A stretch of DNA of 64,000 nt from Desulfomicrobium sp. (GCA_040768745.1 JAXGMI010000001.1:224001-288000); one strand, 5' to 3'; shown: positions 12,301 to 57,560, numbered from the stretch's first letter. Notes: a model not told the origin generated them from the sequence alone. A program made the numbers and translations.

Positions 12301-13616
12301 GCAAGCCCTTGTCACGCAGGTAATCCCTGATGCGGTCGTATTGACCCTGTGGGCTTGGTTTGCGTCCCTTGCCTGACCTTGGGGCGAGTATTTCCCGGAT
12401 CTTGGCATCGGCCTTGGCAAGGCGCTCCTGGCGGTTCGCCTTGGTTTCGGCTGCGATCTTCGGAGAATAGGCCATAACGAACCGGACCCCGCTGCGAACT
12501 TCCTCGACAATCTCCTCGTCCTGCCCATTAAACGAGATCTTAAGACGCAACGCCTCGATCACGCTCCGCGCCTCCTCTCCACGACGCAATGGATGCGCCA
12601 CGATGAAGCCGAATTCCTCGGCCAGCAACGTCTCGAGATTTTGGTCCGAGAGCATTCCCCTGTCCCCGACAAACACCACGCTGCGTAGCTTGAAGCGAGT
12701 CTTCAGATCCTTCACCACCTCAACCACAGTGGTCTTATCCACGGTGTTCCCCGGAAAGACATGGTGGCAAAGCGGTATGCCGTCCTTGCCCATGACCACG
12801 CCGATGGTGATTTGGCGCCGATCAAACCGGCCATCGCGACTGTATCCGAAGCGCCGAATGTCATCCTCCACCAACGATCGATCCCCGTCGAACCATGTGG
12901 AAGTGATGTCATAGAAGAGCAGGTCGCCTTCCCAATGCGCCTTGGGCATGAAGCGCTTGGCTATCAAGGGCTCCAAAGCTTCCTTCGCATCCAGCAATCT
13001 ATCCATGGCGCGCAGGAGATGGTGATAGGCCGGGCGGTGTTGCTCAAATCCAGAAAGCCAGACGCCATCGAGCCAATCCAGTAGCGCCAGTTTGGAGCAC
13101 GGATCGCAGAGTCGATTGACGATCAGCAACTTGATCAGTTCAGCATAATCCATCCCGGCCCCGGTCTTTACTCCTGCACGGGCCAGGGCTTTGGAGAGTC
13201 CCAGGATTTCCCAGAGATGTTTGACCGCGTGAACATGTCCGAAATCACGTGCAAACGTGAGGAGCGGCGGTCCAGTCTGAACCGGGTCTCGACCGAGAGC
13301 TTTCTGGAAGCCAGCGATGAGTCTCTCGACCTGGTCTTCGCCCAAACTCTCGATAGTGCCGAGATGAGCCAGGATGCGTGTGCGCGGAGATCCGCCTTTC
13401 TCGGGATCACGGAAAGATTCCGCGATCTGAAGATGGCGGTAGACTTTGTCGCCTCGTTTCTGCTTGGCTATTCGTACAAACATAAACTACGAGTAGCATT
13501 ATTATTCATGAATAGCAATGTTTATGTCTATTTTGTACGTACTACAAATTGGGCATTAAAAAACAATATAAGTCATAACTTCGAGGTGTTAGCCTCAGGC
13601 CGCTGTCAAACTTGGG
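9322..13616 (-). mobile_element. IS1634-family element inserted in the outer IS66 tnpC; its transposase (13483-12195 + 9783-9394) is itself interrupted
   Basis: 15-bp IR CCCAAGTTTGACAGC; 6-bp TSD GGGACG (9316-9321, 13617-13622); YDITS, GYSRD, VGDRG, IERGWR.LK..LELRPVYH motifs. Confidence 0.92.
9784..12194 (+). mobile_element. IS66-family element, inner copy (tnpA 9833-10186, tnpB 10180-10530, tnpC ~10578-12129)
   Basis: GTAAGCGCTCA termini; 8-bp TSD GTTTCGAG (9776-9783, 12195-12202); DMRAGIDRL, DET, TDGY, DNNTAENAIR. Confidence 0.95.
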
Positions 13617-15793
13617 GGGACGTGGTCGATGCGCTCGTCGAGGATGGCCCGTATTGCGTTGAGGATGGGAACTGCTTGCTCCAAGCGCATTGGTACCTTT
13701 TCCTCCGGCTCCAGTTCTTTGATATTGTGCTCGACCTTGTAGAGCAGACCGATGAGATCCAGGATTTCCTTGGCCGTCCCGTGCGTGATCTTCTTTGAGG
13801 TCGCTTTCTGGACGTCCATGAACTTACGACGGATGTGGGCCATGCAACCGACATGGATGATGCCGTCCGATTCGCCGAGAGCCTGGTACCCGGAGTAGCC
13901 GTCGGTCTGGATGTAGCCCTTGTACTCGCCCAGATACTCCTTGGGGACAGAGCCCGACCTGGTCGGGTCGTAGCAATAGACCACGGTCGGCCGATCTGGA
14001 TTGCCGCCACGGAAGAGCCACAGATACGATGTGGAAGTATCGGATCGCCCTGGTTCGTTGAGTACTTGCAGTGTGGTTTCGTCCATGTTGATGACCGGGC
14101 CGGAGCGGATTTCCGCCTGGAACAGTTCATGGAGCGGCTCCAGCGCCTTGGCCACGGCCATGGCCCATCCGGACATGGAATGACGCGGGATGTCCACGCC
14201 CAAGCGGGCAAACTGCTTGGTCTGGCGGTAGAACGGCATGGCATCGACGAACTTGGCGGTAATGACCTGGGCCAAGAGGCTCGGCGTGGCGATGCCCTTG
14301 GGGATGATCTGCGGCGGCATGGGTGCGATACGCACCACCGGCATACCCTCCTCTCCGTCGCAGGCCGGACAGGCGTACTTCGGGCGGATATGGCGTTCTA
14401 CCCGCATGACGGCCGGGACGTAATCGAGCTTTTCGGAGACTTCTTCGCCGATGCGCTTCAGGCAGGCTCCGCAAGAGCAGAGTTTCTGGTCTTCGGGCAG
14501 ATCGTGAACGACTTCGATGCGCGGCAGGTGATCCGGCAGAGGCTTGCGTCCCCGCTTGGCTCTGGTGTGGGCCGGGACTTCGACGACGGGCATTTCCGCA
14601 GGCTTCGCCTCTGCGATCCTAACCAAGGGCAGAGGTAGGATGCCTTGGTAGAGGTCTTTGGATTTCTCGGACTTGGGAGCATACAGGGCGGCCTGCAACA
14701 GGGCCACGCGATCCTGGAGATGGCGGTTTTGCTGGTAGTAATCCCAGACCAGATGCTTGAGTTGCCCGATGTCATCGGGAAGGTTCTCGATGTCTCCCAT
14801 GCAAGAATATTTAGCAATAATATCTTGAAATAGCAAGATATTTGTCACTATAGAACCGATCTGTAGTACAACCGCTGATGTGCTCCTTGCGGCGTGAGCG
14901 TGAGTCCATCGAGGAGCCAGCCAAGCTGTTGCGGGGTGATATTCATGACCTCTGACGCCCGCTCGGGCCAGCAGAATCGATGCTTCTCCAGGCGCTTGTG
15001 CCAGAGGCAGAAGCCGTTGCGATCCCAGTACAGCACCTTGATGGCGTCGCGCCTGCGGTTGCAGAAGACAAAGAGGTGTCCGGAAAAGGGGTCCAGATCG
15101 AGAATGCCCTGGGCCGTCATGCTCAGTCTGTCGATGCCGGCGCGCATGTCCGTGGTACCGGGGGCGAGATAGACCTTGGCCGCGGGCACCCTCAGCATCG
15201 GGCTTCCAGCACGGTCAGCAGCTTGGTCAGCGTGGCTTCGTCGAAGTCAGCCGGGATATCGAGAGCGTAACGCTTACCGACCAGCAGGCCAATGGACGGG
15301 GCTTTCGAGGCGAACGTAAGCGGCAACGCCACAAGAGCAGGAATTGAGGTGGATTCGCCACCAGAAGATGATCGGGACTTTGTTATCCAGTATTGGAACG
15401 TGCTCAAAGCCAAACCATTTTCGCGACAGTATCGGGTCTTGCCGAGGCCACTCTCCCGCCATTGCCGGACATGCGCCATCCAGCGTGCCGCGTGATTCTG
15501 TGCAAATTGAGATTTCATGAAGACCTCCTTGAATTGGAGGCCCATTATCTCACATGAAAAATTTATGGATAGATGCGGACAGGTGAGCGCTTACAAAGAG
15601 TCAGATGTTTATGAAATTATCGACGAGTCTTCATCTGTTGATGAATTAAAAAAGCAAGCCGTCTATTATGCGAGAAATCTAGGGGAAACAGAACACGCAT
15701 GGACTTATGGTATAGATTCTTCTGGTAAATCTTGTGCGCCTTTTGAACTAGAGGTAAATGATAGTTTATACTTTGTAATTAAAGATTACTGAA

Positions 15794-45459: not shown

Positions 45460-46035
45460 CGCTCCAGTGCGTCATCCGGCGTGAACGTCGGCGGATGGCG
45501 CCGGTATGTGCGAGATCTCTCGGGGATGAGAAGGGTCGATCCATTCCCGGGCCCGGGGGCTGGGGTCATGGGGGAGCTCGTTGCGCGCTCCCTCGGGGAT
45601 CGGGGGAAGTGCCCGACCCAGGGCATGCCCACATACGGACAGTCGGGGGATCTGTAAATGGGCGTCTTGAGGGCCGCCCGCCTTGACTGCGCGGGGCCCC
45701 GCGGGCCAGCATCCGGGAGACCCGGATCCGCTCCTGGCCCACTCGAAGTCCTGCTCCAGTTCGCGGGCCAGAAAATAGGGTCACGTCTTCCGTTGACGAA
45801 TCGCAGATCACGGGCAGGCGGGTGTGCGGCGCGAAAAGGCCCAGCAGCGATCAAATCGCGGCTGGGCCTTGTGCTTGTGGGAGGCGAGACTCGAACATAA
45901 CGTCAACATTTTGTATTTACTTACTTTTCGAGCATTGCAAACGGGCACATGTATGCAAAATATACAAAAAATGCATATTTTTGAAATAAAACATGAATCA
46001 GGAAATTTTCGCCCGAAAATCGAAAAACTCAATGA

Positions 46036-46340
46036 ATGAGAATCTCACTTTGAGACACGAATCCAGGGTGGCGAGTGTCAGACGTGAAGGCCTGGCCGAG
46101 GTTGTGGACGGGGTGACGTCTGACGGGCGGGCGGGCTGGCCACGGGCATGGATTCGTGCTATGGCCGCGGCCATGACCTTGACCATCATCCTCGCGCTCG
46201 CTGCCGTTGTCGCTGTGAGCCTCAAAATTCACCATTCTCAGGCGCCTGTGTCCTGTCCATGGTGCGGTGCCCTGCAGTCGCGTTCCGCTCGTCGCTGTGC
46301 GGTTTGTGGCGGGGCCATGGGCCGGGCCTCCCGCGTATAA
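46036..46340 (+). CDS. Small membrane protein with a C-terminal Zn ribbon
   Basis: One TM helix followed by CPWCG...CAVCG. Confidence 0.55.
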
Positions 46341-46371
46341 AAAAAGAAACCCCGCCGGAGCGGGGTTCTTA
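46339..46371. terminator. Bidirectional terminator between convergent cargo genes
   Basis: AAAAAAGAAACCCCGCCGGAGCGGGGTTCTT. Confidence 0.7.
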
Positions 46372-46490
46372 TGGTTTGTATGCGGATCAGATTCTAATCG
46401 TGCACTTCGTGAATCTTGACATCTTTCATTCCCTGTTCGGCCAGTACATTCATATTAATCAGCGGTAAAACTATACTCCCGAATCCAGCA

Positions 46491-46988
46491 CTAGAAAGAA
46501 ATCCTGTTATAGCACTTCGCAATACATTTTGCTTCGCGGTTAGGTTTGAAAATTTTTTCAGGTACTGGAATTGAGCTACAGAATACTTTAATTGGCTTAC
46601 CTTGGATTTGTTCATATCCGCGCAACCACTTGTCACGAATGAAATTTTTTTGTTCCGAAGAATATTTTCGTCCCCGTATTTCATCAAGTAATCGATTGTA
46701 AACAGGTACGACCTCAGGGTGCAGGACATCGAAAAAGTTTTCCTCATTTAACCTGATAAAAGCATAAATCACAATACATGATTTGTCTTCATCCGAATTA
46801 TAGCTACCTGATTGGAGACTTTTTCTATACCATTTTTTGGCTTCGTCCTGCCCTTCAGGTTGTCGATGAAAAAAATAAACACCTTCCCCCCAAAGAGCAA
46901 ATGAACCGAGCCGAAAGCCAGACCTACTGATGCTTTCAGCCCTGCTTGCGGTTGTTCCATGGGCACCTTCAAGTTCAAGCATTGCCAT
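46491..46988 (-). CDS. ADP-ribosyltransferase-fold (PARP/HYE-like) protein, AT-rich cargo
   Basis: AHGTT...I...GF...WGEGVYFF...A..W; the C-terminus may extend to 46394 if there is a frameshift. Confidence 0.6.
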   Translation of the reverse strand: MAMLELEGAHGTTASRAESISRSGFRLGSFALWGEGVYFFHRQPEGQDEAKKWYRKSLQSGSYNSDEDKSCIVIYAFIRLNEENFFDVLHPEVVPVYNRLLDEIRGRKYSSEQKNFIRDKWLRGYEQIQGKPIKVFCSSIPVPEKIFKPNREAKCIAKCYNRISF

Positions 46989-47333
46989 CCCGGCGGCGCT
47001 ATATCTATTTTGAAAAAAATGTAACCCCCTTGACTTCTGAAAAATCAAAAAATTGTCAGAAATCCAAAATCGCATTATCTTAAGTGCTCACGGAAGGGTC
47101 ACGCGCAACTTGCACCCCCTAGAAAAAATCGCCCGCGGGTGGAAACAGAGAAACCACCTCACGGCCCAGACTTCTAATCAGTACACCCCATAATCAAAAA
47201 ACCCGCCCCGGACGGCTCTCATCCGAGGCGGGCTCAAACCTCCACGCTTTGCTCCAAGCGCCGCGCCTTGGTTTGATGGTCCGGAGTAAACGGACATTCC
47301 AGCGCAGAACTGCAGGCCCGCGCAGGAAATTTC

Positions 47334-47801
47334 TTAGTCCACAATGACCGACGCGCCCACGCCGTAGCGAAGATCAGACAGCACGTAGTAGGCCTGGGTC
47401 AGGTTCAGCGCGTTGCTGGCCGCCGTCTTCACGGTCACGCAGTCGAACCCGCCGGCCACGTCCAGCGCGCTGGCGTCGATCTCGAACGCAACGAGCTTGT
47501 GCTTCAGGGTCGCCGAAGTCGTGAACTCCACGTCATCCGTCTGACGCACCCAAGCGTCACTCGTGGCCGCGTCGGCGACCAGGTAAATCGGCACGTCCAC
47601 GGCTAGGGGCTTGGAGCCGGTGCCGTCCACCTTCGTGGCCTGCTCGATCGTGATGGCCACGGGGTCGGCGTGACCCTGGGCGATGTCGACAACCACGGTC
47701 ACATGCCCGGCCTTTTTCAAGCTCACATAGTCGCCGGTGATGGCCGCCCCCGCTTGGGGGGCGATGGCCTCGACGATCTTCACTTTTTCAATCAGGTTCA
47801 T
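47334..47801 (-). CDS. Capsid cement/decoration-like protein
   Basis: Immediately follows the capsid gene, has an SD, beta-strand-rich 155 aa. Confidence 0.55.
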   Translation of the reverse strand: MNLIEKVKIVEAIAPQAGAAITGDYVSLKKAGHVTVVVDIAQGHADPVAITIEQATKVDGTGSKPLAVDVPIYLVADAATSDAWVRQTDDVEFTTSATLKHKLVAFEIDASALDVAGGFDCVTVKTAASNALNLTQAYYVLSDLRYGVGASVIVD

Positions 47802-47810
47802 GGCGTCCTC

Positions 47811-49094
47811 CTACTCGGTCCTTGCGGCCAGCATCACGAACGGAGAGAGCGTGTTGCTGCCGTTCAAGGGCGTGATGGGCTTATCGTGAAGCGGCTGGCC
47901 ATTGTTCCGCATGATGAACCGGAAGGCGGTTTCATCGGTCAGGAACTTCACATGGATGCTTTCCGCTTCCTCTACTCCGCCCTTGGTGATGAGCAGATAT
48001 TCCGACCAGTCGGCCAACACGATGTCACCGAGGCTGCCCAAGGTCGCGCAGAACTCCACCGGCACAATCGGCAAGCTGAACAGGGCGCCGAAGGGGTTGC
48101 CCCGGAAGTCGGGCGTATAGACGGGCTTGTCACCAATGGTCATGAGCGGGAACTGGGTCAGACAGTCCTGATTCACGAACCAGGCCGCGCTGCGCAGGTT
48201 GCCCCTGAAGCGGCCCATCATCTTCACCACGTTGGTCGCGTTGATGGTTCCCGCGGTCTGGCTGGTTTCCTTGGCCACGGTCACGGGAAGATCTGATTTC
48301 GTAACACCGAGGCACTGCCCCGCGCCGTTGCCTTCCCAGATTTCCTTATCCAGGCGGAAGGAAAGCTGCTGCCGAAGCACGCGCTTCGTATAGGCGGCCA
48401 TGGCGGGCGCGTCCCGGAGCATCCGGTTCGTGACGTAGACCAGACCGTAGAGGTCCTCGAGGCGCAATTCGCGCTCGTTCAACTTCGCCTTGCCACCGTC
48501 CTGCATCGTGTCGGCTTCGCCCTTTCTGTAGACGCTCACGCCGTTGATTTTGCCGTCGCTGCGGTCACGATCATCGGCCGCCAGGTAGGAATAGCTGTCC
48601 GCGTTCGGGCCGATGGGCTGGATGGAGCACCGGGAGGAAAAAACGCCAGTCTGGATGGCCGTTGTGGCGATGTCGGCGGCCTTGTCGGTCTCCACCAAAT
48701 AGCCACCCTCGGAAGGGGTGCCGGTGTTGCCGCCGGCAGCGTTCACGACCTGCTGGTAGCGCTCACGGGCCCGGGGAGCGCCGCGCCCGTCCAGGGTCAT
48801 CTCCATCACGTCCATCATCTGTTCGCCAAGGTTCTTGTAGGTCGCGGGCTGCCGGGTGATACTGACGTCACCATAAAAACCGTTGGCTTGGTTGGCCACG
48901 GCCAGGGCGTCGGCGGGGTCGGAGAGACCGTTCAACCGGCGATAGTTGGCCGCCTGCTGGGCTAACTTGTTTGCCTCATCCATGAGGGCGTCAAAGCGGG
49001 TCTGGTCGCCGGGGGTGAAGTCGTCTTTTTCCTGCAGGGCGCGGGCTTTGTCGAGGACCTGTTCCTGTCGCGCTAAAATCGTTTCAAGATGCAT
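47811..49094 (-). CDS. HK97-fold major capsid protein with an N-terminal delta (scaffold) domain
   Basis: Coiled-coil N-terminus; GGYLV; GEA; VTNRMLRD; GNGAGQCLG; DWSEY; DETAFRF..R.NG. Confidence 0.88.
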   Translation of the reverse strand: MHLETILARQEQVLDKARALQEKDDFTPGDQTRFDALMDEANKLAQQAANYRRLNGLSDPADALAVANQANGFYGDVSITRQPATYKNLGEQMMDVMEMTLDGRGAPRARERYQQVVNAAGGNTGTPSEGGYLVETDKAADIATTAIQTGVFSSRCSIQPIGPNADSYSYLAADDRDRSDGKINGVSVYRKGEADTMQDGGKAKLNERELRLEDLYGLVYVTNRMLRDAPAMAAYTKRVLRQQLSFRLDKEIWEGNGAGQCLGVTKSDLPVTVAKETSQTAGTINATNVVKMMGRFRGNLRSAAWFVNQDCLTQFPLMTIGDKPVYTPDFRGNPFGALFSLPIVPVEFCATLGSLGDIVLADWSEYLLITKGGVEEAESIHVKFLTDETAFRFIMRNNGQPLHDKPITPLNGSNTLSPFVMLAARTE

Positions 49095-49120
49095 TTTGGA
49101 CTCCTTTGATGTGAGGTGCG

Positions 49121-49807
49121 TTAAATTTTCGCTTGAAGGGCCGCGAGCTGCAGGGCGCGTTCGCGTCGTTCCCTGTCCTGACCAGATGCCTGTCCGGGCG
49201 TGAAAATCCTGTCCACGAATCCATGACGCTTTGCCTCTTCGGCCGTGAACCACGTCTCGGCGTCCATCCACGCGCGAATCTGCTTCTCATCCTTCCCGGT
49301 CCTGGCCCGGTAGGTCTGCACGATGTTGCCCGTGGTCTGGCGAAGCAGGGCCGCATAATCCAGCATCTCTAATTCACCGCCAGCGCAGACGCCCCACGCG
49401 TTGTGGATCATGAACGCGCCACCGGACGCCATTTCCACCTCGTTGGCAGCGATGGCCAGGCCCGTAGCTGCCGACGCGCAGAGCCCGTCAATATGGGCGA
49501 TGACATTGGCAGGATGCTGCGCAATGGCCGTGCGGATCGTCTCTGCGTCGAACACGGAACCGCCCGGAGAGTTGATGCGCAAATGGATGGTCTTGGCCTT
49601 GATGGCGGCGAACTCGGGAACCCATGTCTTGGGGTCAATGCCGTACCACGAGCCGATGGCGTCGTAGACGTAGACCGTGGCCGCACCTCGGGCCGCGTCG
49701 AAGACGGGAGCGGGGCTTGTCAGGACGGGCTTGCCGGCCTTCTGCCTGGCCAGTGCCTCGGACTCGGCCCGGGCCAGCAACTCACGCGCGGATAGCCGGG
49801 CGCTCAT
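49121..49807 (-). CDS. ClpP-like head maturation protease
   Basis: RINSPGGSVF, DGLCASAA, FMIHNAW, ETWFTAEEA..GFVD. Confidence 0.9.
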   Translation of the reverse strand: MSARLSARELLARAESEALARQKAGKPVLTSPAPVFDAARGAATVYVYDAIGSWYGIDPKTWVPEFAAIKAKTIHLRINSPGGSVFDAETIRTAIAQHPANVIAHIDGLCASAATGLAIAANEVEMASGGAFMIHNAWGVCAGGELEMLDYAALLRQTTGNIVQTYRARTGKDEKQIRAWMDAETWFTAEEAKRHGFVDRIFTPGQASGQDRERRERALQLAALQAKI

Positions 49808-50028
49808 CGGGGGCCGCCTTGCGGGAGGCTATTCCCGCGCAGGTTGTGTTCCGTCAGGGCGCGGGCCAGGTCCGCCTCGGTCAACTGCCCGCGCTCCACC
49901 ATGAGCAGGAGAGCTTCGAGCAATTCACCCTGTGGCAGGCCAGCCTTGGCGGCCTCAACCTTCAGGCGCTTGGCCGTGTCCTGGCTCAGTCTGATTGTGT
50001 GTCTCGTTTTTTCCATTTCGGTCTCCAT
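49804..50028 (-). CDS. Small RHH-like DNA-binding protein
   Basis: TRHTIRLSQDTAKRLKVEAA..G...GELLE. Confidence 0.55.
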   Translation of the reverse strand: METEMEKTRHTIRLSQDTAKRLKVEAAKAGLPQGELLEALLLMVERGQLTEADLARALTEHNLRGNSLPQGGPR

Positions 50029-50139
50029 GGGCAGACAATGCCGCCTAGTCAGACAAAAAAACCCCTCGAACCTGTTCGCGGGGTCTCCGGTCGCACCTAT
50101 CAAAAAAATCTATGCGAACCATGGCCCAAATCAGCCCTG

Positions 50140-50212
50140 ATTTTGACGACACGAAAAAAAGAGAGGGCACGCCGGTCTTGGGCGGAAGGACGCCAAGATT
50201 CGCACTCCCCGG
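50140..50212 (-). other. cos-like packaging signal
   Basis: Minus strand GGGGAGTGCGAATC...AGACCGGCGTGCCCTCTCTTTTTTTCGTGTCGTCAAAAT resembles the layout of HK97-type cos regions (judged from memory). Confidence 0.45.
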
Positions 50213-50219
50213 GCCTGGG

Positions 50220-50714
50220 TCAGGCCTGCGCGCCGCGCTGGAAGGCCAGCCGCACGCCCCTAACGTGCCGCTCCGTCACCGCGCACGCCCGGGCAATCTC
50301 CGCGTCCTTGCGCCCGGCCTTGAGCATGTCCTCAATGACCCGCCGCCCTACCTTGGCCTTCAGCCTGGGCCTGGATAACCCGAGGTCGCGCTTGACCTCG
50401 GCCACGAACCGCGCCGAAACGCCGACCTCGGCCGCGACCTCACGGATAGACGCGCCAGCCTCCAGCAGTTCGGCCACGCGGACCTTGCGGGGCTCCGGGC
50501 GGATGGCCACCGTGGGCAAGAGAATATCGAACCCGCCGTAGGCCTCGGAGAGGGCTGCAGCAGGCCCGGCGCCTATCAACTCCACCAGGGCCGGATGCGG
50601 CGCTCGCGCGCGGATGTACAGGGGCCGGGATGTCTTTTCCCTGAGCAGGATTGCGGCCGCTTCCTCGCCAACGGTTTCAACCAGCCTTGCGGCCGGCACC
50701 CAAACAGCGCCCAT
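50220..50714 (-). CDS. Mor-like / double-HTH transcriptional regulator
   Basis: VGEEAA..L....LYI, IG...A.ALSEAYGG; two HTHs (SIREVAAEVGVSARFV, DAEIARACAVTERHV). Confidence 0.6.
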   Translation of the reverse strand: MGAVWVPAARLVETVGEEAAAILLREKTSRPLYIRARAPHPALVELIGAGPAAALSEAYGGFDILLPTVAIRPEPRKVRVAELLEAGASIREVAAEVGVSARFVAEVKRDLGLSRPRLKAKVGRRVIEDMLKAGRKDAEIARACAVTERHVRGVRLAFQRGAQA

Positions 50715-50715
50715 C

Positions 50716-51081
50716 TCACGCCTCCACCATGTTGCAGATTGACCAGGCAATCCCGGCCACGGATGGCGACCACCAGCACGCACCCTTCCCATGGTGCCGG
50801 CGCATGTCCGCCACCCACGCCTCGGCCTCGGTCCTGCTCATGGCCGGGAACGCCGCCGCGTGGGCCTGCAGGACGCCCCGGCACCTCTCCGCATGGTAGA
50901 GAGCCACCCGCAGCGCCCGCGCCTTCCTGGGGCACCAGGGGAGGCTTGCCAGGGGCAGCACCCACCCGCCGACTACTCGGAAGTGGATCTCGTTTTCCCT
51001 GGCCAGGGCCGCCAGGAAGGACAACTTCAAAAGCGTGCCCTTGTCGTCGGGGAGAGGTATTTGGGTAAAGGGGTCTGTCAT
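50716..51081 (-). CDS. Hypothetical satellite protein
   Basis: Coupled ORF in the operon. Confidence 0.5.
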   Translation of the reverse strand: MTDPFTQIPLPDDKGTLLKLSFLAALARENEIHFRVVGGWVLPLASLPWCPRKARALRVALYHAERCRGVLQAHAAAFPAMSRTEAEAWVADMRRHHGKGACWWSPSVAGIAWSICNMVEA

Positions 51082-51443
51082 CGTCTCGCCCATTCATGCC
51101 AAGCGCCGGGCACTGGAGCGCCAGCCCGTGGACGTGGTTTCCGCCTGCCCCATTGATAATCGCCCGTGTCGCCCTCGATGCGGAACGTGGTCAGCGTGCG
51201 CAAGGCTACGGCCTCAACCGCGTTGAAAACCGGGTCGCAGGGTTCCGGCGTGATGTGACACTCAATTTCGGCAACGGATGCGTTCGAGTCATACCAGACG
51301 GCTGAAACGTATTTCGCCACGCCTTGCGTTTTCGCCAAGTCGGCAAAGTCGATCATCTCTCTGATCTCGTTCAGCCGACCGTGGCGGGTAAGTAGCGTGA
51401 TTCCGTGCACGAGTAGCGCGCCTTCGACTTCGAATTTTTCCAT
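51078..51443 (-). CDS. Hypothetical satellite protein
   Basis: 121-aa ORF with an AGGA SD; stop overlaps the next ATG. Confidence 0.55.
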   Translation of the reverse strand: MEKFEVEGALLVHGITLLTRHGRLNEIREMIDFADLAKTQGVAKYVSAVWYDSNASVAEIECHITPEPCDPVFNAVEAVALRTLTTFRIEGDTGDYQWGRRKPRPRAGAPVPGAWHEWARR

Positions 51444-51546
51444 GTTCCTTCTCCTATCATGCCGGTGCGGTCACGCCGCCCGTGAAGGTTTTCGCCATGG
51501 AGGGAGAGATTTTTTCTTTTTCTTCCCCTGGCCAGTTGCCCCGACG

Positions 51547-51659
51547 CGAAGCGAAGAACGAAGACCCCCCTATAGGGGGGTTCTTCGCCTTCTTCGGTTC
51601 TTCGGTCTCTCGCGTGCGAAGATTCTTCGAAGATTCTTCGGTTTTCTTCGCTTCTTCGG
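51547..51659. repeat. Iteron array plus palindrome; putative satellite replication origin
   Basis: CCCCCCTATAGGGGGG (51565-51580), seven TTCTTCG copies on its right and inverted CGAAG(AA) copies on its left. Confidence 0.75.
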
Positions 51660-53930
51660 TCACTCAGACCACCCACGTCTTGCGCGGATTGCCTCACCGA
51701 TAATGGCGGCCTGTGTTTTCGCACCTGGGCCGCCGAACTGAAAGAGTCCGTCGGCGGTCTCGCAAATGAGAAGGCTTTTCTTGAGGCCGATCACCGCGTC
51801 GTTGAAGGCCGCCCTCGTTGCATTCGTTCCCTTTGGGTTCGGATGGTTTTCTTGATGATGTTCCCGCCAGGTTCCCCGGTCGATGCCGATGAACGCGCCG
51901 GAGTCGTCAAGGAAGCCTCTCTCCATGGCGGCTTGGCGGAACCTCTCGAAGCGTTCGCGGTTCACTGGCGTGATGGTCGGAGTCTTCACTTTTTCCTTGG
52001 CCCCCTCGCTGTCCGCCTCTGGGTCTGGGTAGACGACGCAGCTTGTCACCGGATCGCCATCTGCATCTTGGCCAAGTTCGACAACCTCCCGCCGGAAGTG
52101 CTTCACTATGTCGTCGCGTCCGTCTTTCACCTTTCTGGTGTTCCAGGAAAAAAGCAGTTCAGACTTGTTCGCCTCCTCCACTTCAAGGACCATATCCACG
52201 CCCGCAAACATGGAGTAGTGCCCACGGAAGCCCTTGTCCGTGTTCTTGCCGGGATGCCCCACAAAACAAACAGACCCTTCCACGGCCTGGGCAATCCGCG
52301 TTGCACTGGCCAGGATCAGGCCGTAATCGACGGACCCGTTCTCCTCCAGGCCAGGGGCCGCCCGGTTCAGCGTGTCCACGATAACCACCGCGCCGGGCCC
52401 GACCTCTTCAAGGACAAATGCAATCAGGTCGTCCGTGTCTTCCTTTGTCCGTATGTCCATGGGGTCGGGAGAAAACACGACGCCAGGGTAGCGCCGGTTG
52501 TGATATTGCGCCCATGCCTGCACTCGCCGCTTGTATCCGTGCTGCCCTTCCAGGCAGGCATAGACTACCTGCTTTTGCTTGGTGCGGAATCCGAACCACT
52601 CTCGGCCCTCTTGGATGTCCGCCGCCATATCCACCATGAGGAAGCTCTTCCCGACGGCGGAAAGTCCGTACACAATACCCACGCTCCTCTCCGCCATGAT
52701 GTTTTTTATGATCCATTCAACGTCCGACAGGGCCATGAGGTCATCATATCGCAGCGCTTTGCGTTTGGACTTTTTCGCCGCCAGGGCCGCCTCGATGCAC
52801 CGATATACCGCGTCCAGGCCATGAGCCGGAGCGCTGGCCAGGTCGTTGAAGTCCTTGTCGTCGTATTTCCGGTCTGGCCCGAAGTCGGGCACGGCCAAGG
52901 AGCCGTTCACCGCCTGCGCGGCTTCGACCGCCTTCGGGTCCGGTTCGCCCGTGGCCTTCACCAGGTCGGCCAAGATGATGATGCGCGCCCCCGGGTATTG
53001 CGCCCGGATGGCCTTGGCCACGGTCGGCATGTTGGAGTTGGATGAGGTCATGAAGGCGGCCGTATTGTGCCCGCGCAGCGCGGCCAGGGTGGCCAAAGTC
53101 GTGGTCCCGCCTTCACCGACAACTACCATGTCCGGCACTCCCTGGAAGCCGTCCAGCCGTCCATGGGCGCCCGTTTTTGTCCCTCTCCCGGCAAGCGCCG
53201 CCTTGCGCCCGGACTCGTCAACCAATTCCACGGTGCAGGGTCCTGTCCCGTCGAACCTCTCCAGGGGGATGACCAGCACGCGCCCGGCCAGTGGTTCGCC
53301 GTCGGCTTGGGGGGGGTACCCAAGGATGCGCTGCAACTCGGCCGCGTCGATCTCCAACATGGACGGGGCAGGGTATACGCCTTTCCTCACCAGGTATGGA
53401 TGGTCGGGCCGCGCCGGTTGCGCCGTCGCGATGATGGCCGCCGACCACGCCCGCGCCTGGGCCTGGACGCGCTCGGCCTCTTCTGCGTTCTTCCTGGCCG
53501 CCTCTTCCCTGGACCGCCGCCTGACCTCCACTTCCTCGGGGCTCATCTCCCGCGCCGGCACTGTGTCGGACCAGCCGTATTCCTGGGCCAACTTGAAGAG
53601 CGTTCCAGCCGTGATGCCGCGGCCCTGGCCAAAAGATCGCCACGTTTCCCGCGCCGATGATTCGCGGTAACTCGAACCTGACCGGCTCCAGTCGTCCCAG
53701 ATGGCAAAGCCGTCCTCGCCAAGTTCGTTCTGGATGGCCTGCCCAATGCGCACCCATGTATCCCGGTCGCAATCCGGGTCCAGCACGGCCAGGGCGCTTT
53801 CGATCCTGGGGCGCTGGTCAAGTTCGCGTTGCGCCGCCGGGAGCGGTCGCCGCTGTTCGCCAGCGTTGTTGAGGTCAATCACGGCCGCACCCTCGCAACT
53901 TCTGTTGACAACCACCGCAGGACGTGGCAT
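51660..53930 (-). CDS. Primase-helicase (PriCT-2 + Toprim + AAA_25); start uncertain
   Basis: WVRIG.A....WDDWS...W.SF...GTLF; HPYL.RKG; GEG..T; D..DFND; GLSAVGKS; VDTLNR. Confidence 0.88.
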   Translation of the reverse strand: MPRPAVVVNRSCEGAAVIDLNNAGEQRRPLPAAQRELDQRPRIESALAVLDPDCDRDTWVRIGQAIQNELGEDGFAIWDDWSRSGSSYRESSARETWRSFGQGRGITAGTLFKLAQEYGWSDTVPAREMSPEEVEVRRRSREEAARKNAEEAERVQAQARAWSAAIIATAQPARPDHPYLVRKGVYPAPSMLEIDAAELQRILGYPPQADGEPLAGRVLVIPLERFDGTGPCTVELVDESGRKAALAGRGTKTGAHGRLDGFQGVPDMVVVGEGGTTTLATLAALRGHNTAAFMTSSNSNMPTVAKAIRAQYPGARIIILADLVKATGEPDPKAVEAAQAVNGSLAVPDFGPDRKYDDKDFNDLASAPAHGLDAVYRCIEAALAAKKSKRKALRYDDLMALSDVEWIIKNIMAERSVGIVYGLSAVGKSFLMVDMAADIQEGREWFGFRTKQKQVVYACLEGQHGYKRRVQAWAQYHNRRYPGVVFSPDPMDIRTKEDTDDLIAFVLEEVGPGAVVIVDTLNRAAPGLEENGSVDYGLILASATRIAQAVEGSVCFVGHPGKNTDKGFRGHYSMFAGVDMVLEVEEANKSELLFSWNTRKVKDGRDDIVKHFRREVVELGQDADGDPVTSCVVYPDPEADSEGAKEKVKTPTITPVNRERFERFRQAAMERGFLDDSGAFIGIDRGTWREHHQENHPNPKGTNATRAAFNDAVIGLKKSLLICETADGLFQFGGPGAKTQAAIIGEAIRARRGWSE

Positions 53931-54043
53931 GGAGACGTTGCCCTCCTTCCAGGGGCAAAACTCCTTGTTTGGTTGCCTTTCATCCTTCTTTGAGCCCCCG
54001 GCGTGCGATGCCTCGGGGGTTTCTCTTTTTTTGTGGTCATGGC

Positions 54044-54505
54044 TCATACCTCGCGATGGGCAAACAGCACCCACTTTCCGCCGACCATTATTTCGACCTT
54101 GGAGAAGTGCTCCACGCTGATCGGCGCATAGCTGCACCACCAGTTCCTGTGGCTCGCACCAAGGTCTTGAGCCACTTTTTCAAGTGCCCGCGCCCAAGCA
54201 GGGGTGACGCCGCCTTTTTGGCGATGTTTCTTCCACGGCACTAGACGGACATCTCCTCGTTCCAGTGCAGCCGGATTTAAGCAAAAATGCACTGGCTGAT
54301 ACGCGCTTTCTTCCAGTTCCTGCACGGTCGCCTTGGGATACGCGGTCCACTCAAGATTGGGGTCAGAGGATAGCCATAGGGCTGGACGCTCGCCCAACGG
54401 CACGCCTATTGTGGCAAGTCGGAGTTCACCAGAGTCGAAGATAGACTGTAGGTGTCCGGCCTTGCTGTAGTGCCAGAGAGTATCTGGCGATGTTGGCTTT
54501 TTCAT
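54044..54505 (-). CDS. ART-fold-like hypothetical protein
   Basis: LWHYS...L.SI..SG.L...PALWLS...E.TA. Confidence 0.5.
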   Translation of the reverse strand: MKKPTSPDTLWHYSKAGHLQSIFDSGELRLATIGVPLGERPALWLSSDPNLEWTAYPKATVQELEESAYQPVHFCLNPAALERGDVRLVPWKKHRQKGGVTPAWARALEKVAQDLGASHRNWWCSYAPISVEHFSKVEIMVGGKWVLFAHREV

Positions 54506-54518
54506 GGCTGCACCCGCC

Positions 54519-54752
54519 TCACGCCCGACTTTCGGCGTCGAGACGATCAATCAAAGAGTAAATCTCGGACAGTTTCCACGCGGTCGTCCGCGGGCTCAAT
54601 TTGATGCCACGCGGGTAGCGTCCGTCACGCACGCCGTCCCACCAAGTGGACTTTTTTACGGGGATGATCTTCAAGACTTCGGGGAGACGCACAAGGCGGT
54701 CTTGCTGGACGGGGGCCTGGATCTGTTCGGCCTGGGTCTTTTTCGCTTCCAT
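54519..54752 (-). CDS. alpA: AlpA-family regulator/excisionase
   Basis: RLVRLPEVL..IPVKKSTWW.GV..GRYP..IKLSPRTTAW..SEI. Confidence 0.92.
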   Translation of the reverse strand: MEAKKTQAEQIQAPVQQDRLVRLPEVLKIIPVKKSTWWDGVRDGRYPRGIKLSPRTTAWKLSEIYSLIDRLDAESRA

Positions 54753-54886
54753 GGTTCACCTCGGAAAGTAAAATGGACGTCCGGGCCAGGATTAGCCGCG
54801 AACGTCCATTGAAAACGAAAAAAAACGCGCTGTTTCAAAGATATTCGGAAGTTATTTTTTGCTCGAATATCTTTTGCCTTTTATTC

Positions 54887-55624
54887 CTATGTGTTATCCT
54901 CTAAAAGAATTTTTTGAACCTGCTTGAACGCCTTGCAAGCATCGTCCCTGGAAACATCTTCGCCAGTCGCCACCGACATGGTTATTGCCAGCACATTAAA
55001 AAAACCATCCGTCCATTGTGGAATGGAGAATCCGCGGGTGCTCATAGCGAACAGGACGCCGCGCAGGGCCTCCCACTTCCTGGACGCCTTCCTAGAGGCC
55101 TTGGCCGCGTAGGTCGGGATAGCCGCCTCACGGGCAAGCGTGCGATGCTGAACCACTTGGCGCAGGATGCCCTGCAACGCCTCGGCGCCCTCGAACTGCC
55201 CGTCGATAGCCGGGTCCAGGTTGACTTCCCGGAGTAGGGCCTCCAGCCGCGTGGCCGTCTCGCTCACCTCGGAAATAAGATTCTCCCGGTAGTCCACGGC
55301 ATGCTGTTCGGCGTCAAAGTCCCTACAGGCGCGCACCACGTCCTCGACGAACGCCCAAATGGGCGTGTTGAGCAGGTTATCCACCTTGGCGAAGTGCTCA
55401 AAAACGCTTTGCATCCTGGGGTCCGTCCCGATGCGATGGACAACCGCCGCCCTGTGGGTCAGCGCCTCCAAGGATCTGTTTTCGGCGTCAACGCGTCGAT
55501 GCGCCCCGGCCTCACGCGCCTGGGCCATACGTCGCAGGCACGCCGCGCGCTCATCCTCGATGGCGGTCCGCTCACGCTCCAGGACGCCACGCACATAGGA
55601 GTCAACATATTCGGGGAGGTTCAC
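54887..55624 (-). CDS. Hypothetical helical satellite protein
   Basis: 245-aa ORF between int and alpA. Confidence 0.6.
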   Translation of the reverse strand: MNLPEYVDSYVRGVLERERTAIEDERAACLRRMAQAREAGAHRRVDAENRSLEALTHRAAVVHRIGTDPRMQSVFEHFAKVDNLLNTPIWAFVEDVVRACRDFDAEQHAVDYRENLISEVSETATRLEALLREVNLDPAIDGQFEGAEALQGILRQVVQHRTLAREAAIPTYAAKASRKASRKWEALRGVLFAMSTRGFSIPQWTDGFFNVLAITMSVATGEDVSRDDACKAFKQVQKILLEDNT

Positions 55625-55686
55625 GGTTCACCTGCTGGCGAAGATCCAGGACCGGACAGTGCGCCCGGCCCTGAAGGTGGAAGGGA

Positions 55687-55929
55687 CTACTTGCTCGTCG
55701 CCATGGCCACGGCCTCAATGGCCGCGATGCGGTCGGCAATTTCGCGCGTGGCCTCGTCAAGTATCCGCGCCGCCGTCTCGCGCTCATCGCGGTTCAGTTC
55801 GGTCTCGCGGATGAGCTTTGCCACGAGTTGGGCCTTCATGGATGCCTCGCCGATTGCGCCCAATTCGCGTTCAATACGGTCGTACAGATTGCCTTCGGTC
55901 GCCTGGGTCTGTAGTTCTGTCGTAGCCAT
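55687..55929 (-). CDS. Small coiled-coil hypothetical protein
   Basis: GGAGGT SD; 80 aa. Confidence 0.6.
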   Translation of the reverse strand: MATTELQTQATEGNLYDRIERELGAIGEASMKAQLVAKLIRETELNRDERETAARILDEATREIADRIAAIEAVAMATSK

Positions 55930-56031
55930 TTGATACCTCCAGTGTATCATGGGGTTAGGCCGGCGGGGAGTGCCAGCTCCTCGCTTGGCCGAATTTCGGC
56001 TTTGCCCACCATGGGCATGAGCCGAGAAGAT

Positions 56032-57234
56032 TTATTTCTCTCCAGCAACGAGGTGCAAGGGGATGACCTTCGCCCCGTCCCTCAGTTTGTCGAGAAAGTC
56101 GGCCCACGCCTGCATCATCTTCCTGCGCTCGGGCAGGTACTGCGCGAAGTTGTAGGCCGCCCGTACTCCGTCCCGTTCCGCGTGCGCGAGCTGCCGCTCG
56201 ATGGCGTCACGATTCCACCCCTGCTCGTTCAAAAGCGTGCTGGCCATGGATCTGAACCCGTGGGCGCACTGCTGTTGCCGCGTGTCGTATCCCAGATAGC
56301 GCAGTGCCGCGTTGATCGTATTTTCCGACATGGGCCGGGCCGACACCCTGCCTGGGAACAGGTATTTGCCGCCGCCGGTCAGGGGGCGCAGATCCTCGAT
56401 GATGGCAATGGCCTGCTTCGCCAATGGCACGATGTGCTGCACCTTCATCTTCATCTTCTCGGCCGGTATCCGCCATTCCCTGCCCTTGATGTCGACTTCC
56501 GCCCATTCCGCGTGGCGCAGTTCGCCAGGTCGAACGAACAGGAGCGGAGACAGTCGCAGCGCACACCGGACCACATGAGAGCCCTGGTAGCCCTCGATGG
56601 CCCGGAGAAGTTGCGCGATGTCTTTGGGATCTGTCAGACTGGCGTGATGCTTGTGGCGCACTGGTGTGAGAGCACCTTTCAGGTCGGCGGAGTTGTCCCG
56701 CTCGGCCCTGCCGGTCGCCACGGCGTAGCGGAACACCTGGCCAATGACTTGGTGCATCCTGTGGGCAAGGTCGGTTGCACCCCTGTTCTCCATGATCCTG
56801 AGAACGCGCAGGATGTCTTGCGGCTGGATGGAGTTGATGGGCTTGTCACCGAGAAAGGGGAAGATGTCTTTTTCAAGACGGCGAAGGATCTTCGCGCGGT
56901 GGACTTCGCCCCACTTCACTTGATGCTTTTCATGCCACTCACGGGCCAGGGGCTCGAAAGCATCGCCGGTGGGCGTGTCCAGTTCAGCACGGGGGTGAAT
57001 GCCCTGGGCAACGAGCTTGTTGTACTCCAAGCAGGTCGCGCGGGCGTCGGCCAGGGAAATTTCGGGGTAGGGGCCGATGGAGAGCAGGATGGTTTTGCCC
57101 TTCATCATTTTGCGATAGCGCCAGAGCTTTGAGCCGTTCTTCTTGACCGCGAGATATAGCCCGTTGTGGTCAACGATGAGTAGGTCTTTTTCCTTCGCCC
57201 TGGCGTTCCTGATCTTGGTATCAGTCAACGGCAT
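56032..57234 (-). CDS. P4-like tyrosine integrase
   Basis: PLTDTKIRNA...GLYL..IGPYPEISL; RPGEL; HGFR; QLAH; AY. Confidence 0.95.
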   Translation of the reverse strand: MPLTDTKIRNARAKEKDLLIVDHNGLYLAVKKNGSKLWRYRKMMKGKTILLSIGPYPEISLADARATCLEYNKLVAQGIHPRAELDTPTGDAFEPLAREWHEKHQVKWGEVHRAKILRRLEKDIFPFLGDKPINSIQPQDILRVLRIMENRGATDLAHRMHQVIGQVFRYAVATGRAERDNSADLKGALTPVRHKHHASLTDPKDIAQLLRAIEGYQGSHVVRCALRLSPLLFVRPGELRHAEWAEVDIKGREWRIPAEKMKMKVQHIVPLAKQAIAIIEDLRPLTGGGKYLFPGRVSARPMSENTINAALRYLGYDTRQQQCAHGFRSMASTLLNEQGWNRDAIERQLAHAERDGVRAAYNFAQYLPERRKMMQAWADFLDKLRDGAKVIPLHLVAGEK

Positions 57235-57473
57235 CTTGCATACGCTCCGTGGCTCAAAATGATTCACGGGAAGGCCCGTCACTTCTGGATTTCGGAGATT
57301 TCTTGCATACGAAACACGTCGTCCGCGCCCCGTATACAAGCCGGGTATGCAAAAAATAGATGGATGTCAAAGGACCAAACGGGCAAAAGGGACTTCCTCG
57401 GACTATGCGCCCTCAGACTATCCCTTGATTTTATTGCCCTTTTTTACAGAATGGATTCTGTTGGACTTTTGTA

Positions 57474-57560
57474 TGGTGCCGGAGGCGAGACTCGAACTCG
57501 CAAGGGGTTGCCCCCGGTGGATTTTGAGTCCACTGCGTCTACCAATTCCACCACTCCGGC
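57474..57560 (-). tRNA. tRNA-Leu(CAA)
   Basis: Cloverleaf; anticodon loop CTCAAAA; long variable arm; CCA end. Confidence 0.95.

Follow-up and report, generated by a model that had tools for sequence, protein, structure and literature searches.

Organization of the element and its integration site

The analysed window, a stretch of 64,000 nucleotides of Desulfomicrobium sp. DNA whose positions are counted from its first letter, contains an island of 11,618 bp flanked by 17-bp direct repeats at a tRNA-Leu gene, one copy lying within that gene. An exact-repeat search across the 3.09-Mb genome returned these two copies in total, which confirmed the 11.6-kb element with a tRNA-Leu att repeat proposed earlier from the sequence alone. 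The features of the integration site, of the integration, regulation and replication genes, and of the distal end were the following:

57474..57560, minus: tRNA-Leu(CAA), the integration target (ARAGORN)
57481..57497, no strand: 17-bp att core, tRNA side (exact repeat; identical core in the sister locus L012)
56032..57234, minus: tyrosine integrase, 400 aa (PF22022/PF13356/PF00589)
55687..55929, minus: 80-aa helical ORF (no match in Pfam, PHROGs, PADLOC or NCBIfam)
54887..55624, minus: 245-aa ORF, the longest with no assigned function (no match in the same four collections)
54519..54752, minus: AlpA regulator/excisionase (PF05930, E 4e-10)
54044..54505, minus: ART-fold-like ORF, 153 aa, a lead only (structure-cluster comparison)
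51660..53930, minus: primase-helicase, 756 aa (PriCT_2, Toprim and AAA_25; Pfam, PHROGs)
51450..51660, minus: putative replication origin (seven CGAAGAA repeats and a hairpin)
51078..51443, minus: 121-aa ORF (phrog_29216, no function given, E 6e-5)
50716..51093, minus: 125-aa ORF (common to L010 and L011, 60-63% identity)
46491..46985, minus: PARP-like cargo ORF of low GC content (0.40; no PADLOC match)
46158..46340, plus: small ORF of membrane/Zn-ribbon type (present as well towards the end of L014 and L124)
45880..45896, no strand: 17-bp att core, distal side (exact repeat)

The integrase was 90% identical to that of the sister L012, which is inserted at the same tRNA, and the segment beside the distal att (45880-46066) showed 86-89% identity to L010 and L012. 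The putative origin is in the place that matches Gram-negative PICIs, where the origin follows pri (PMC6092414). The PARP-like ORF fills the slot of the tape-measure gene in L010 and L012, and the two ART-like ORFs of the element could not be aligned to each other; for the 153-aa ORF, the nearest named Atlas clusters were PARP/Arr (0.92/0.90), and models of DUF952 and Tpt1 gave TM values of 0.52-0.55. PADLOC found nothing credible among the 10 ORFs scanned. The genes listed in the sequence-only reading were all recovered on the minus strand; its claim of full co-orientation failed at the plus-strand ORF, and its feature list had omitted this ORF, the PARP-like cargo ORF, the cos-like site and the dyad described below.

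Near-identical copies of the element were present in 17 sequencing runs at at least half of the words, and 10 of these 17 may be its source; in RNA runs the shares were small. In the four runs analysed as contigs only, depth was flat over the element and no attP joint was seen. In run X14, one weak contig, of depth 2 and with 30 nt on its shorter side, joined 45879 to 57474, resembling an empty site.

The head operon and its upstream region

Downstream of the replication genes, the element carries a head operon preceded by a putative packaging site and a putative activator site:

50220..50714, minus: Mor-like late transcriptional activator with an extra HTH, 164 aa (phrog_836, E 1.5e-13)
50137..50214, minus: cos-like packaging site, helper type (alignment model from family loci)
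50063..50082, minus: dyad CCCRYGAA-N4-TTCRRGGG, putative late-activator site (pattern match, one mismatch allowed)
49804..50016, minus: ribbon-helix-helix (RHH) protein, 70 aa (PF01402)
49121..49807, minus: ClpP-type prohead protease, 228 aa (NF045542, 171 bits against a cut-off of 120)
47811..49094, minus: HK97-fold major capsid protein (MCP) with an N-terminal delta-like domain, 427 aa (TIGR01554, PF05065)
47334..47801, minus: jelly-roll capsid decoration/cement protein, 155 aa (gene position and predicted structure)
47199..47235, minus: terminator closing the head operon (surrounding region conserved in sisters)

The RHH stop codon overlaps the ClpP start (ATGA), a clean coupling common to the portal-less members of the family, and the RHH protein is a probable regulator of the head operon. 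A role as an Rpp-like redirector of TerS was considered and rejected, since RppC is a winged-HTH protein, which is another fold, and the RHH gene is also found in members with their own TerS. In ClpP, residues S112, H135 and E184, which we take to be the catalytic triad, were invariant in all 13 sequences. The MCP was 62-67% identical overall to the candidate helper lineage, with 72-74% identity in the mature part and 36-38% in residues 1-84; the same 84 residues were 89% identical between phages L025 and L031. A deletion of two residues, presumably located in an A-domain loop, was found in nine of the 10 satellite MCPs and in none of the 11 phages aligned. The AlphaFold model of the MCP, built from a 14-row alignment, had a pLDDT of 45.8 and was confident only for about residues 1-55.

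A homologue of the decoration gene lies after the MCP gene in related full phages. The model of the decoration protein (pLDDT 88) matched YomS (Z 12.5), XepA (Z 11.9), a 135-aa chain of the phage 7-7-1 capsid (Z 9.3, rmsd 3.0, 115 residues aligned) and BPP-1 chain H (Z 7.2), and Foldseek returned mixed jelly-roll matches. The decoration protein of 7-7-1 has a length of 135 aa. Since neither YomS nor XepA is an established capsid cement, the name 'cement' rests on the gene position and the 7-7-1 match. Sequence searches of the PDB with the MCP and decoration alignments gave no match. The dN/dS values were 0.19-0.29 for ClpP and 0.22-0.29 for the MCP, and 0.19-0.33 across ClpP, MCP and decoration, indicating purifying selection on the head genes.

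The cos-like site lies between the Mor-like gene and RHH or TerS in all nine satellites aligned; the model was built from these same nine, and it independently matched the full phage L031 (E 4e-15), a candidate helper in which a phrog_836 gene also lies upstream of the cos-like site. In L016, L005 and L019, the site directly precedes TerS. This position, together with the layout of HK97-type cos regions, suggests that 50137-50214 is a cos. The variant of the element differs from that of L031, and when phages were searched for exactly this variant, only two unrelated chance matches were returned; for the other variant, one of the four matches (L115) was also unrelated. The dyad was found upstream of RHH in the element and in 11 other family loci (one mismatch allowed). 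In the phages L031 and L121 it comes immediately after cos, and in five phages it falls inside TerL, towards the 3' end and about 250 nt ahead of the portal gene. A coding vestige of TerS was sought between cos and RHH, and none was found. The same genome has an island without a capsid gene at G000:C2:402837-415149, and this island carries a related cos-like site.

Genes that the element lacks

In searches with Pfam, PHROGs and tblastn, the element showed neither a portal nor a terminase gene, and no gene for a connector or a tail. When 349 packaging, neck and tail proteins of related loci were used as tblastn queries, a single match of 28 aa (E 0.004) was obtained, inside the primase gene. 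It came from the 55 TerL queries and is spurious, and there is no space for a TerL gene; the 68 portal queries, the 34 TerS queries and the 51, 40 and 18 queries for head-tail connector/adaptor and HNH proteins gave no match, and no fragment of a portal, TerL or tape-measure gene was detected with the related proteins. None of the 19 ORFs scanned matched the P4-like markers Psu, Sid, Delta and Ash in Pfam or PHROGs. The earlier statement that no ORF of unassigned function is long enough for a portal or TerL held, the longest being 245 aa and the largest intergenic gap 611 bp, and the possibility raised with it, that the small ORFs are TerS or connector proteins, was excluded by the lack of matches with the packaging and neck queries. 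The proposal that the satellite would borrow portal, terminase and tail is supported by the absence of these genes from an intact element, and to this list we add the neck.

A family with graded gene content and its donor phage lineage

Ten members of a Desulfomicrobium satellite family share the capsid gene, which was carried by six of 25 Desulfomicrobium genomes, in five of the six within satellites. A portal gene is present in three of the 10, exactly between RHH and ClpP, with dN/dS of 0.10-0.13 in one branch; the other seven, at several insertion sites, are portal-less. The tape-measure gene was found in five of the 10 and TerS in one or two, just upstream of RHH where present (family loci with TerS: L004, L119, L120 and L123), and TerL, HNH and connectors were absent from every relative examined. 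L023 has no ClpP-MCP block, and L120 and L124 carry an unrelated MCP and no protease.

Duplicates (L002, L027, L035, L037, L040, L096-L098, L100-L103) and distant homologues were dropped before the trees were built, and L007 was left out of the MCP tree, which had 30 rows, as a duplicate. The 10 satellite MCPs formed one group (support 86/95; 97/99 without L004) within a clade (100/100) to which the phages L031, L025 and L018 also belong, the last on a contig that continues into a full phage head operon. The three satellite portals (support 100) and nine of the 10 satellite ClpPs (support 99) were placed beside these same phages. The decoration tree did not group the satellites (two changes) and the tape-measure tree was unresolved, so a single capture is unsupported for those two genes. 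Parsimony by itself would, on the MCP tree, favour one portal gain over several losses. The placement of the satellite proteins indicates an HK97-like cos siphophage lineage as the donor of the capsid gene. The sequence-only reading had named portal or terminase genes in relatives as a sign that the element is a deletion derivative; the portal of three relatives and the TerS of some bear this out in part, and TerL, HNH and connectors do not. As no relative has any of these last three, and with dN/dS at 0.2-0.3, the element appears to be a reduced but selected form and not a broken cf-PICI.

The complete elements measured 11,618, 11,603 and 10,419 bp, and L014 about 9.8 kb with a weaker boundary; their gene content differs. 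These lengths are 0.24-0.30 of the 38-44-kb phage contigs, and PICIs usually have about one third of the helper length (PMC6092414). Assembly of the relative L032 gave a closed circle; the identifier of L032 shares the IMG dataset number with phage L031. A search with helper-lineage proteins found no cognate helper in this genome, nor did a search run without a positive control in the five other satellite-bearing genomes. A prophage resident at G000:C2:~30-79 kb has a portal, but its head module is unrelated and the prophage gave no helper-lineage matches; it was rejected as the cognate helper and might still act as an inducer. Given the lack of a resident cognate helper, mitomycin C induction in this strain will probably fail.

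Proposed life cycle and alternative explanations

The sequence shows integration at tRNA-Leu, an own primase-helicase and putative origin, a cos-like site and dyad of the helper lineage, and an intact captured RHH-ClpP-MCP-decoration operon. We propose, with a probability of about one half, that the element is a capsid-encoding cos-type Desulfomicrobium PICI, parasitic on HK97-like siphophages of the L031/L025/L042 lineage, that builds a small head on the helper portal, to be filled by the helper terminase. Infection by a phage of this type would lead to excision and replication of the element, and a Mor-like activator, its own or that of the helper, would act from the dyad to turn on the head operon. 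The MCP would then form a small shell, probably T=4 and chiefly of satellite subunits, around the helper portal; ClpP would cleave off the delta domain, which has diverged, and the shell would be stabilised by the decoration protein. The helper HNH, TerS and TerL would cut at the shared cos, packaging one 11.6-kb unit, and neck, tail and lysis would be supplied by the helper. Portal, TerS and tape measure, kept by relatives, would have been lost in this lineage because the helper copies serve. A bolder version, offered tentatively, is that the T=4 shell is built purely from satellite products, with its own MCP, protease and decoration, takes up a foreign portal and receives its DNA through a foreign terminase. 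The family, whose members have or lack portal, TerS, tape measure and decoration and never have TerL, would represent still existing steps that go back to a single capture of the late operon of a helper, with cos and the TerL-embedded late promoter; if true, this would show directly how capsid-forming and capsid-hijacking satellites interconvert. Small heads made with a satellite capsid gene have a precedent in SaPIbov5 Ccm (PMC8569155) and possibly a second in PmCI172 (PMC6092414). The divergence of MCP residues 1-84 from the helper while the protease was retained was counted for an own head; counted against it were the flat depth and missing attP joint in the four runs, the precedent of EcCICFT073, the gene states of L023, L120 and L124, the fact that Ccm forms no shells of its own, the differing cos variant, and the consideration that three copies of 11.6 kb would also approximately fill a helper head.

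The satellite MCP might instead be unable to form a shell by itself and co-assemble with the helper MCP, for example at the pentamers in the manner of Ccm, giving small mixed heads in which ClpP serves only for the diverged delta domain. The identity of the mature parts makes this plausible, one phi12 mutation for Ccm resistance falls in the loop to which we assigned the two-residue deletion, and no protease has been pinned to Ccm cleavage in SaPIbov5; we consider it unlikely, since Ccm is only 24% identical to the helper capsid protein and has a shorter delta domain (PMC8569155), whereas the MCP here is full length and comes with protease, decoration and, in three relatives, portal, resembling a shell-building kit. 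It is likewise improbable that concatemers are packaged into helper-sized heads via the shared cos, with head genes that interfere, supplement or act as decoys and are dispensable for transfer. EcCICFT073 itself is the precedent (PMC6092414), and the loss or replacement of the ClpP-MCP genes in L023, L120 and L124 and the capsid-less island in the same host agree with it; against it stand the purifying selection on three linked head genes across a diverged family, the clustering of complete elements at 10-11.6 kb, and the constraint on the portal in one branch. Decay of a portal-bearing satellite, cf-PICI or prophage to a remnant that no longer makes particles would account for the portal, TerS and tape measure of relatives, the missing cognate helpers, and the absence of a replication sign in the four contig-only runs. 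This we regard as very unlikely, as all the core genes are intact with dN/dS of 0.2-0.3, the RHH-ClpP coupling is clean, the portal-less state is that of the majority at several insertion sites, fragments of the lost genes and relatives with TerL or connectors were not found, and near-identical copies recur among the runs.

Comparison with known satellites

The PICI criteria of the SatelliteFinder model (PMC10085698) were applied by hand. The element has the integrase, AlpA, primase-replicase and capsid genes and no TerS, that is, four of the five core genes, and it is free of portal, head-tail connector, tail and holin genes, whose presence is an exclusion criterion. Judged by these genes, it fits the published PICI definition as type B, which requires four of five core genes and counts the capsid as one; a protease is found in PICI now and then (PMC10085698). 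Of the cf-PICI genes, capsid and maturation protease are present, and TerL, portal, connector/adaptor and HNH are not. The new intermediate type of satellite that had been proposed is not supported, since the PICI model already includes the capsid, and a protease with capsid and no portal (phiRv1) and a capsid with decoration (EcCICFT073) have been published.

In the available parts of the sources, the Mycobacterium tuberculosis complex elements phiRv1 and phiBN42_1 have, like the element here, genes for integrase, excisionase and primase as well as for prohead protease and capsid, and a portal is not listed (PMC12268328, PMC3986857), and phiRv1-like elements are classed as PICI (PMC10085698). 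As far as those parts go, phiRv1 differs in its phylum, its serine integrase and terminase gene, the lack of a listed decoration gene, and the lack of a described donor phage lineage or graded family (PMC12268328, PMC3986857); particles were never shown for phiRv1, according to the part available (PMC12268328). SaPIbov5 likewise uses the helper cos, portal, terminase and tail, and has an HK97-fold capsid homologue with a delta domain, although its Ccm occupies pentamers only, does not form shells, and no protease was identified (PMC8569155). The cf-PICI EcCIEDL933 has its own capsid and maturation protease, HNH-type helpers and the same left half, but cf-PICIs package on their own and have genes for portal, TerS, TerL, HNH and head-tail connectors (bioRxiv 10.1101/2022.09.08.507074). 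Tail-related genes are carried by EPIPs, including a tape measure as in five of the 10 relatives here (PMC12822802), and, in the part of that source available, by PLEs with chimeric tails (PMC12987554); in contrast, the element has no tape-measure gene, and hosts and gene sets are unrelated (PMC12822802, PMC12987554).

A close likeness is to EcCICFT073 and the Gram-negative PICIs, with a tRNA att, an int-alpA-pri-ori series that runs in a single direction, genes for capsid and decoration, a helper-type cos and about 11 kb (PMC10085698, PMC6092414), and no portal, TerL, connector or tail. Unlike them, the element has a ClpP prohead protease, a Mor-like activator and RHH, and no TerS or recognised Rpp, and its helper would be of the HK97/HNH type and not lambda-type, within a lineage that the MCP identity makes identifiable. 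In EcCICFT073, capsid and decoration were dispensable in the reported tests and the packaged DNA had the size of phage DNA (PMC6092414). With PICI capsid genes so far dispensable there and pentamer-only in SaPIbov5, this family, with its own protease and an MCP of about 73% mature identity to a candidate helper, is a clean test of their role. Among the papers listed for prophages and satellites of Desulfomicrobium, none is evidently about such elements, and the family extends satellites to the sulfate reducers of digesters and sludge. Set beside the known systems, its novel aspect is that the captured phage genes, the same ones throughout, are retained in varying combinations among relatives, which offers natural variants that have or lack portal, TerS, decoration and tape measure.

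Boundaries and gene content of the satellite

The satellite in the window, W, comprises 11,618 bp between two 17-bp repeats, which are the only copies in the whole host genome. Its features, by window position, were:

45880-45896, first repeat copy
46491-46985, PARP-like cargo ORF, overlapped at the 3' end by a second open frame (46394-46747); possibly a frameshifted longer gene
50063-50082, dyad 5' of the ribbon-helix-helix (RHH) gene
50206 and 50243, positions where all 4 read runs differ from the window; the cos-like region contains one of the two
57481-57497, second repeat copy, within tRNA-Leu(CAA)

The gene list of the sequence-only reading was borne out by Pfam, PHROGs and NCBIfam, and its claim that W lacks a portal and a large terminase (TerL) also stood. 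Neither the longest gene of unassigned function (245 aa) nor the widest gap (611 bp) could hold a portal of 410 aa or a TerL of 560 aa. When 349 small terminase (TerS), TerL, HNH, portal, neck and tail proteins of related loci were compared with W, the one match (28 aa, E 0.004) fell within the primase gene. The same proteins gave no match in the host genome at E 1e-5. In the ClpP-type protease, S112, H135 and E184 were invariant in 13/13 sequences.

The last gene encodes a 155-aa protein with a predicted jelly-roll fold (pLDDT 88), whose best structural matches were YomS (Z 12.5) and XepA (Z 11.9). Next came a chain of 135 aa from the phage 7-7-1 capsid (Z 9.3) and chain H of BPP-1 (Z 7.2); the 7-7-1 decoration protein is reported to have 135 aa (PMC12796354). 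Related full phages have a homologue of this gene after their capsid gene, and, from the fold matches and this position, the protein likely serves in decoration.

A satellite family with a graded set of phage genes

The major capsid protein (MCP) of W had matches in 12 of 401 order-level genomes (at E 1e-40) and in 6 of 25 genomes of the genus, and its RHH protein in 7/401, from two samples; the titled records with family-type loci are Desulfomicrobium. Family loci were drawn from searches giving 7, 78 and 15 loci, plus further genome regions. Ten distinct satellites carry this MCP (W, L004, L010-L015, L024 and L032), on the common scaffold int...alpA-pri...Mor-cos-[TerS]-RHH-[portal]-ClpP-MCP-[decoration]-[tape measure]. 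TerL, HNH and connectors were found in 0/10, with L004, L010, L011, L013 and L024 incomplete. A portal was present in three, in the RHH-ClpP interval of L015 and L032 and immediately 5' of ClpP in truncated L024; the gene order without portal or TerL expected in relatives held for TerL and for most satellites as to the portal, but not for these three. TerS was found in L004 and, inferred across two contigs, in L013/L123, and the decoration gene in W, L010 and L011. Five satellites (L004, L010, L011, L012, L024) have a complete tape measure of 745-829 aa; in W its slot, as seen in L010 and L012, is occupied instead by the low-GC PARP-like ORF. These tape measures are related to the ones in phage L025 (864 aa) and phage L031 (at least 1631 aa), and could alter tail length or evade superinfection exclusion by the helper.

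Other family loci depart further. In L023, a 9,171-bp element at tmRNA, ClpP-MCP was lost through an in-frame deletion, seen at 10945-11271, which joins the N-terminus of ClpP to the C-terminus of the decoration protein. L119 is a truncated TerS-RHH-ClpP locus, and L122 is almost identical to a part of W. L120 (873-2048) and L124 (692-1870) have an unrelated major head protein of ~391 aa and no protease behind the same cos-RHH scaffold, which points to capsid-gene swapping inside the family.

Origin of the head module

The same module is carried by full HK97-like phages with HNH-TerS-TerL-portal-ClpP-MCP-decoration-neck-tail. An MCP tree of 30 rows put all ten satellites on one side of a branch with support 86/95 (not starred), or 97/99 without L004; phages L031, L025 and L018 join them in an enclosing clade supported at 100/100. 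In FastTree analyses, the three satellite portals (support 100) and 9/10 satellite ClpPs (support 99) adjoined the same phages. In L015, portal and ClpP still overlap by 11 nt as they do in the phages, and portal-bearing satellites retain a phage-like ClpP N-terminus; in portal-less ones ClpP is directly coupled to the RHH stop. Synonymous distances to L025 were 1.56 for portal, 1.50 for ClpP, 1.31 for MCP and 0.68 for decoration, rough values near saturation. From the tree placement, the junctions and these distances, similar for portal, ClpP and MCP and lower for decoration, we read the module as acquired in a single old capture, with genes lost repeatedly thereafter; the portal may instead have been regained later in one branch, the course that simple parsimony favours. 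The ClpP and MCP trees disagree, which indicates recombination. All head genes are under purifying selection, with dN/dS of 0.19-0.33 for head genes in W comparisons, 0.10-0.13 for portal and 0.14-0.20 for tape measure.

Cos-like site and dyad

A 78-nt element in the Mor-RHH interval was conserved in nine aligned satellites, and the profile built from them independently matched phage L031 (E 4e-15) and sites immediately 5' of TerS in L016, L005 and L019. From its position and the layout of HK97-type cos regions, we take it as a putative cos. The variant common to W, L010 and L011 had no phage match in IMG/VR. Satellite L032 (10,542 nt, a closed circle of 10,419 bp with portal-ClpP-MCP) has the same IMG dataset number as full phage L031 and a near-identical cos-like core; the two are a candidate satellite-helper pair.

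In W, and likewise in 11 further loci of the family, the dyad stands 5' of RHH; in phages L031 and L121 it comes after cos. It recurs within TerL, about 250 nt 5' of portal, in 5 phages, a copy confounded because the same bases code a conserved peptide. A match of about 30 nt to the TerL-internal context in satellite L014 hints that a putative TerL-embedded late promoter was kept. Phage L031 encodes a late activator that falls in one PHROG with the Mor-like gene of W, and the gene for it lies 5' of the phage's cos-like site.

Further elements were seen in the host genome (contigs C1 and C2) and the window:

C2 402837-415149, capsid-less 12.3-kb island at tRNA-Arg with a 40-bp repeat, integrase and cargo resembling type I restriction-modification genes (names by eye); it also has a related cos-like site
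C2 417675-417747, another cos-like site just beyond this island
C1 1416232-1424822, element whose integrase, primase-like gene and small genes are common with the family, no head genes
C1 1587646-1595221 and 1895745-1896959, two more integrase elements
C2 ~30000-79200, resident prophage of ~49 kb lying at tmRNA; it has a portal gene, a serine recombinase, a capsid-like gene of 286 aa and genes resembling those of contractile tails (names except portal by eye); head module unrelated to that of W
Window 6060-30000, low-GC region after tRNA-Leu(CAG), rich in fragments of insertion sequences and holding an integrase-like ORF
Window 10530-14848, inverted duplicate transposase pair among these fragments

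Proposed mechanism

The sequence shows an integration site, replicon genes, an intact protease, a capsid, a cos-like site and dyad common with phages, and no packaging, neck or tail genes. Infection by a helper would induce excision and replication of W, and its head operon would be switched on via the dyad. The satellite MCP would then assemble a small head that starts from the portal of the helper, the satellite ClpP would cut the satellite delta-like domain (36-38% identical to those of helpers; mature part 72-74%), and the helper terminase would package one unit. The sizes fit this scheme (elements of 11,618, 11,603 and 10,419 bp vs 38-44-kb phage contigs). No cognate TerL was found in the host genome or in 5/5 other satellite hosts, suggesting that the helper must arrive by infection.

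Against this mechanism, reads showed flat depth over W and no attP in 4/4 runs. Relatives without this head count against the small-head proposal, as does the EcCICFT073 result, in which capsid and decoration deletion did not restore lambda plaques and left transfer unchanged, and packaged DNA was phage-sized (PMC6092414). The same source describes PmCI172, which has an MCP and forms small heads.

Comparison with known satellites

With 4/5 core genes and none of the forbidden ones, W is a type B PICI by the SatelliteFinder criteria presented in PMC10085698. That source mentions proteases as occasional in PICIs and classes phiRv1-like elements among them. For phiRv1, integrase, excisionase, primase, terminase, prohead protease and capsid are listed, with no particles shown (PMC12268328), and phiBN42_1 is described as similar (PMC3986857). 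cf-PICIs are stated to require portal, TerL, HNH and connectors (10.1101/2022.09.08.507074). SaPIbov5 Ccm is reported to form the pentamers of mixed T=4 shells (PMC8569155), EPIPs to have satellite tape measures (PMC12822802) and PLEs chimeric tails (PMC12987554); VEIMEs are described without capsid genes (PMC9618062), and RppC as a winged-HTH protein (PMC6739421). Distant integrase elements with an MCP and no portal found were also seen in Desulfovibrionales and Alphaproteobacteria (L020, L021, L107, L109), with a peptidase-like gene 3' of MCP in two; L107 and L109, from Alphaproteobacteria, have a protease-like gene.

The sequence-only reading stands as to the element and its gene content, and its interpretation is supported in part, W not being a categorically new type: by gene content W belongs to the PICI class and is not a cf-PICI, and it probably works like a capsid-remodelling cos PICI. 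The literature searched held no description of this Desulfomicrobium family. Its new features are the group of hosts, the donor/helper lineage identified here, a cos-like site and dyad common with phages, and a series of members that keep graded sets of phage genes.
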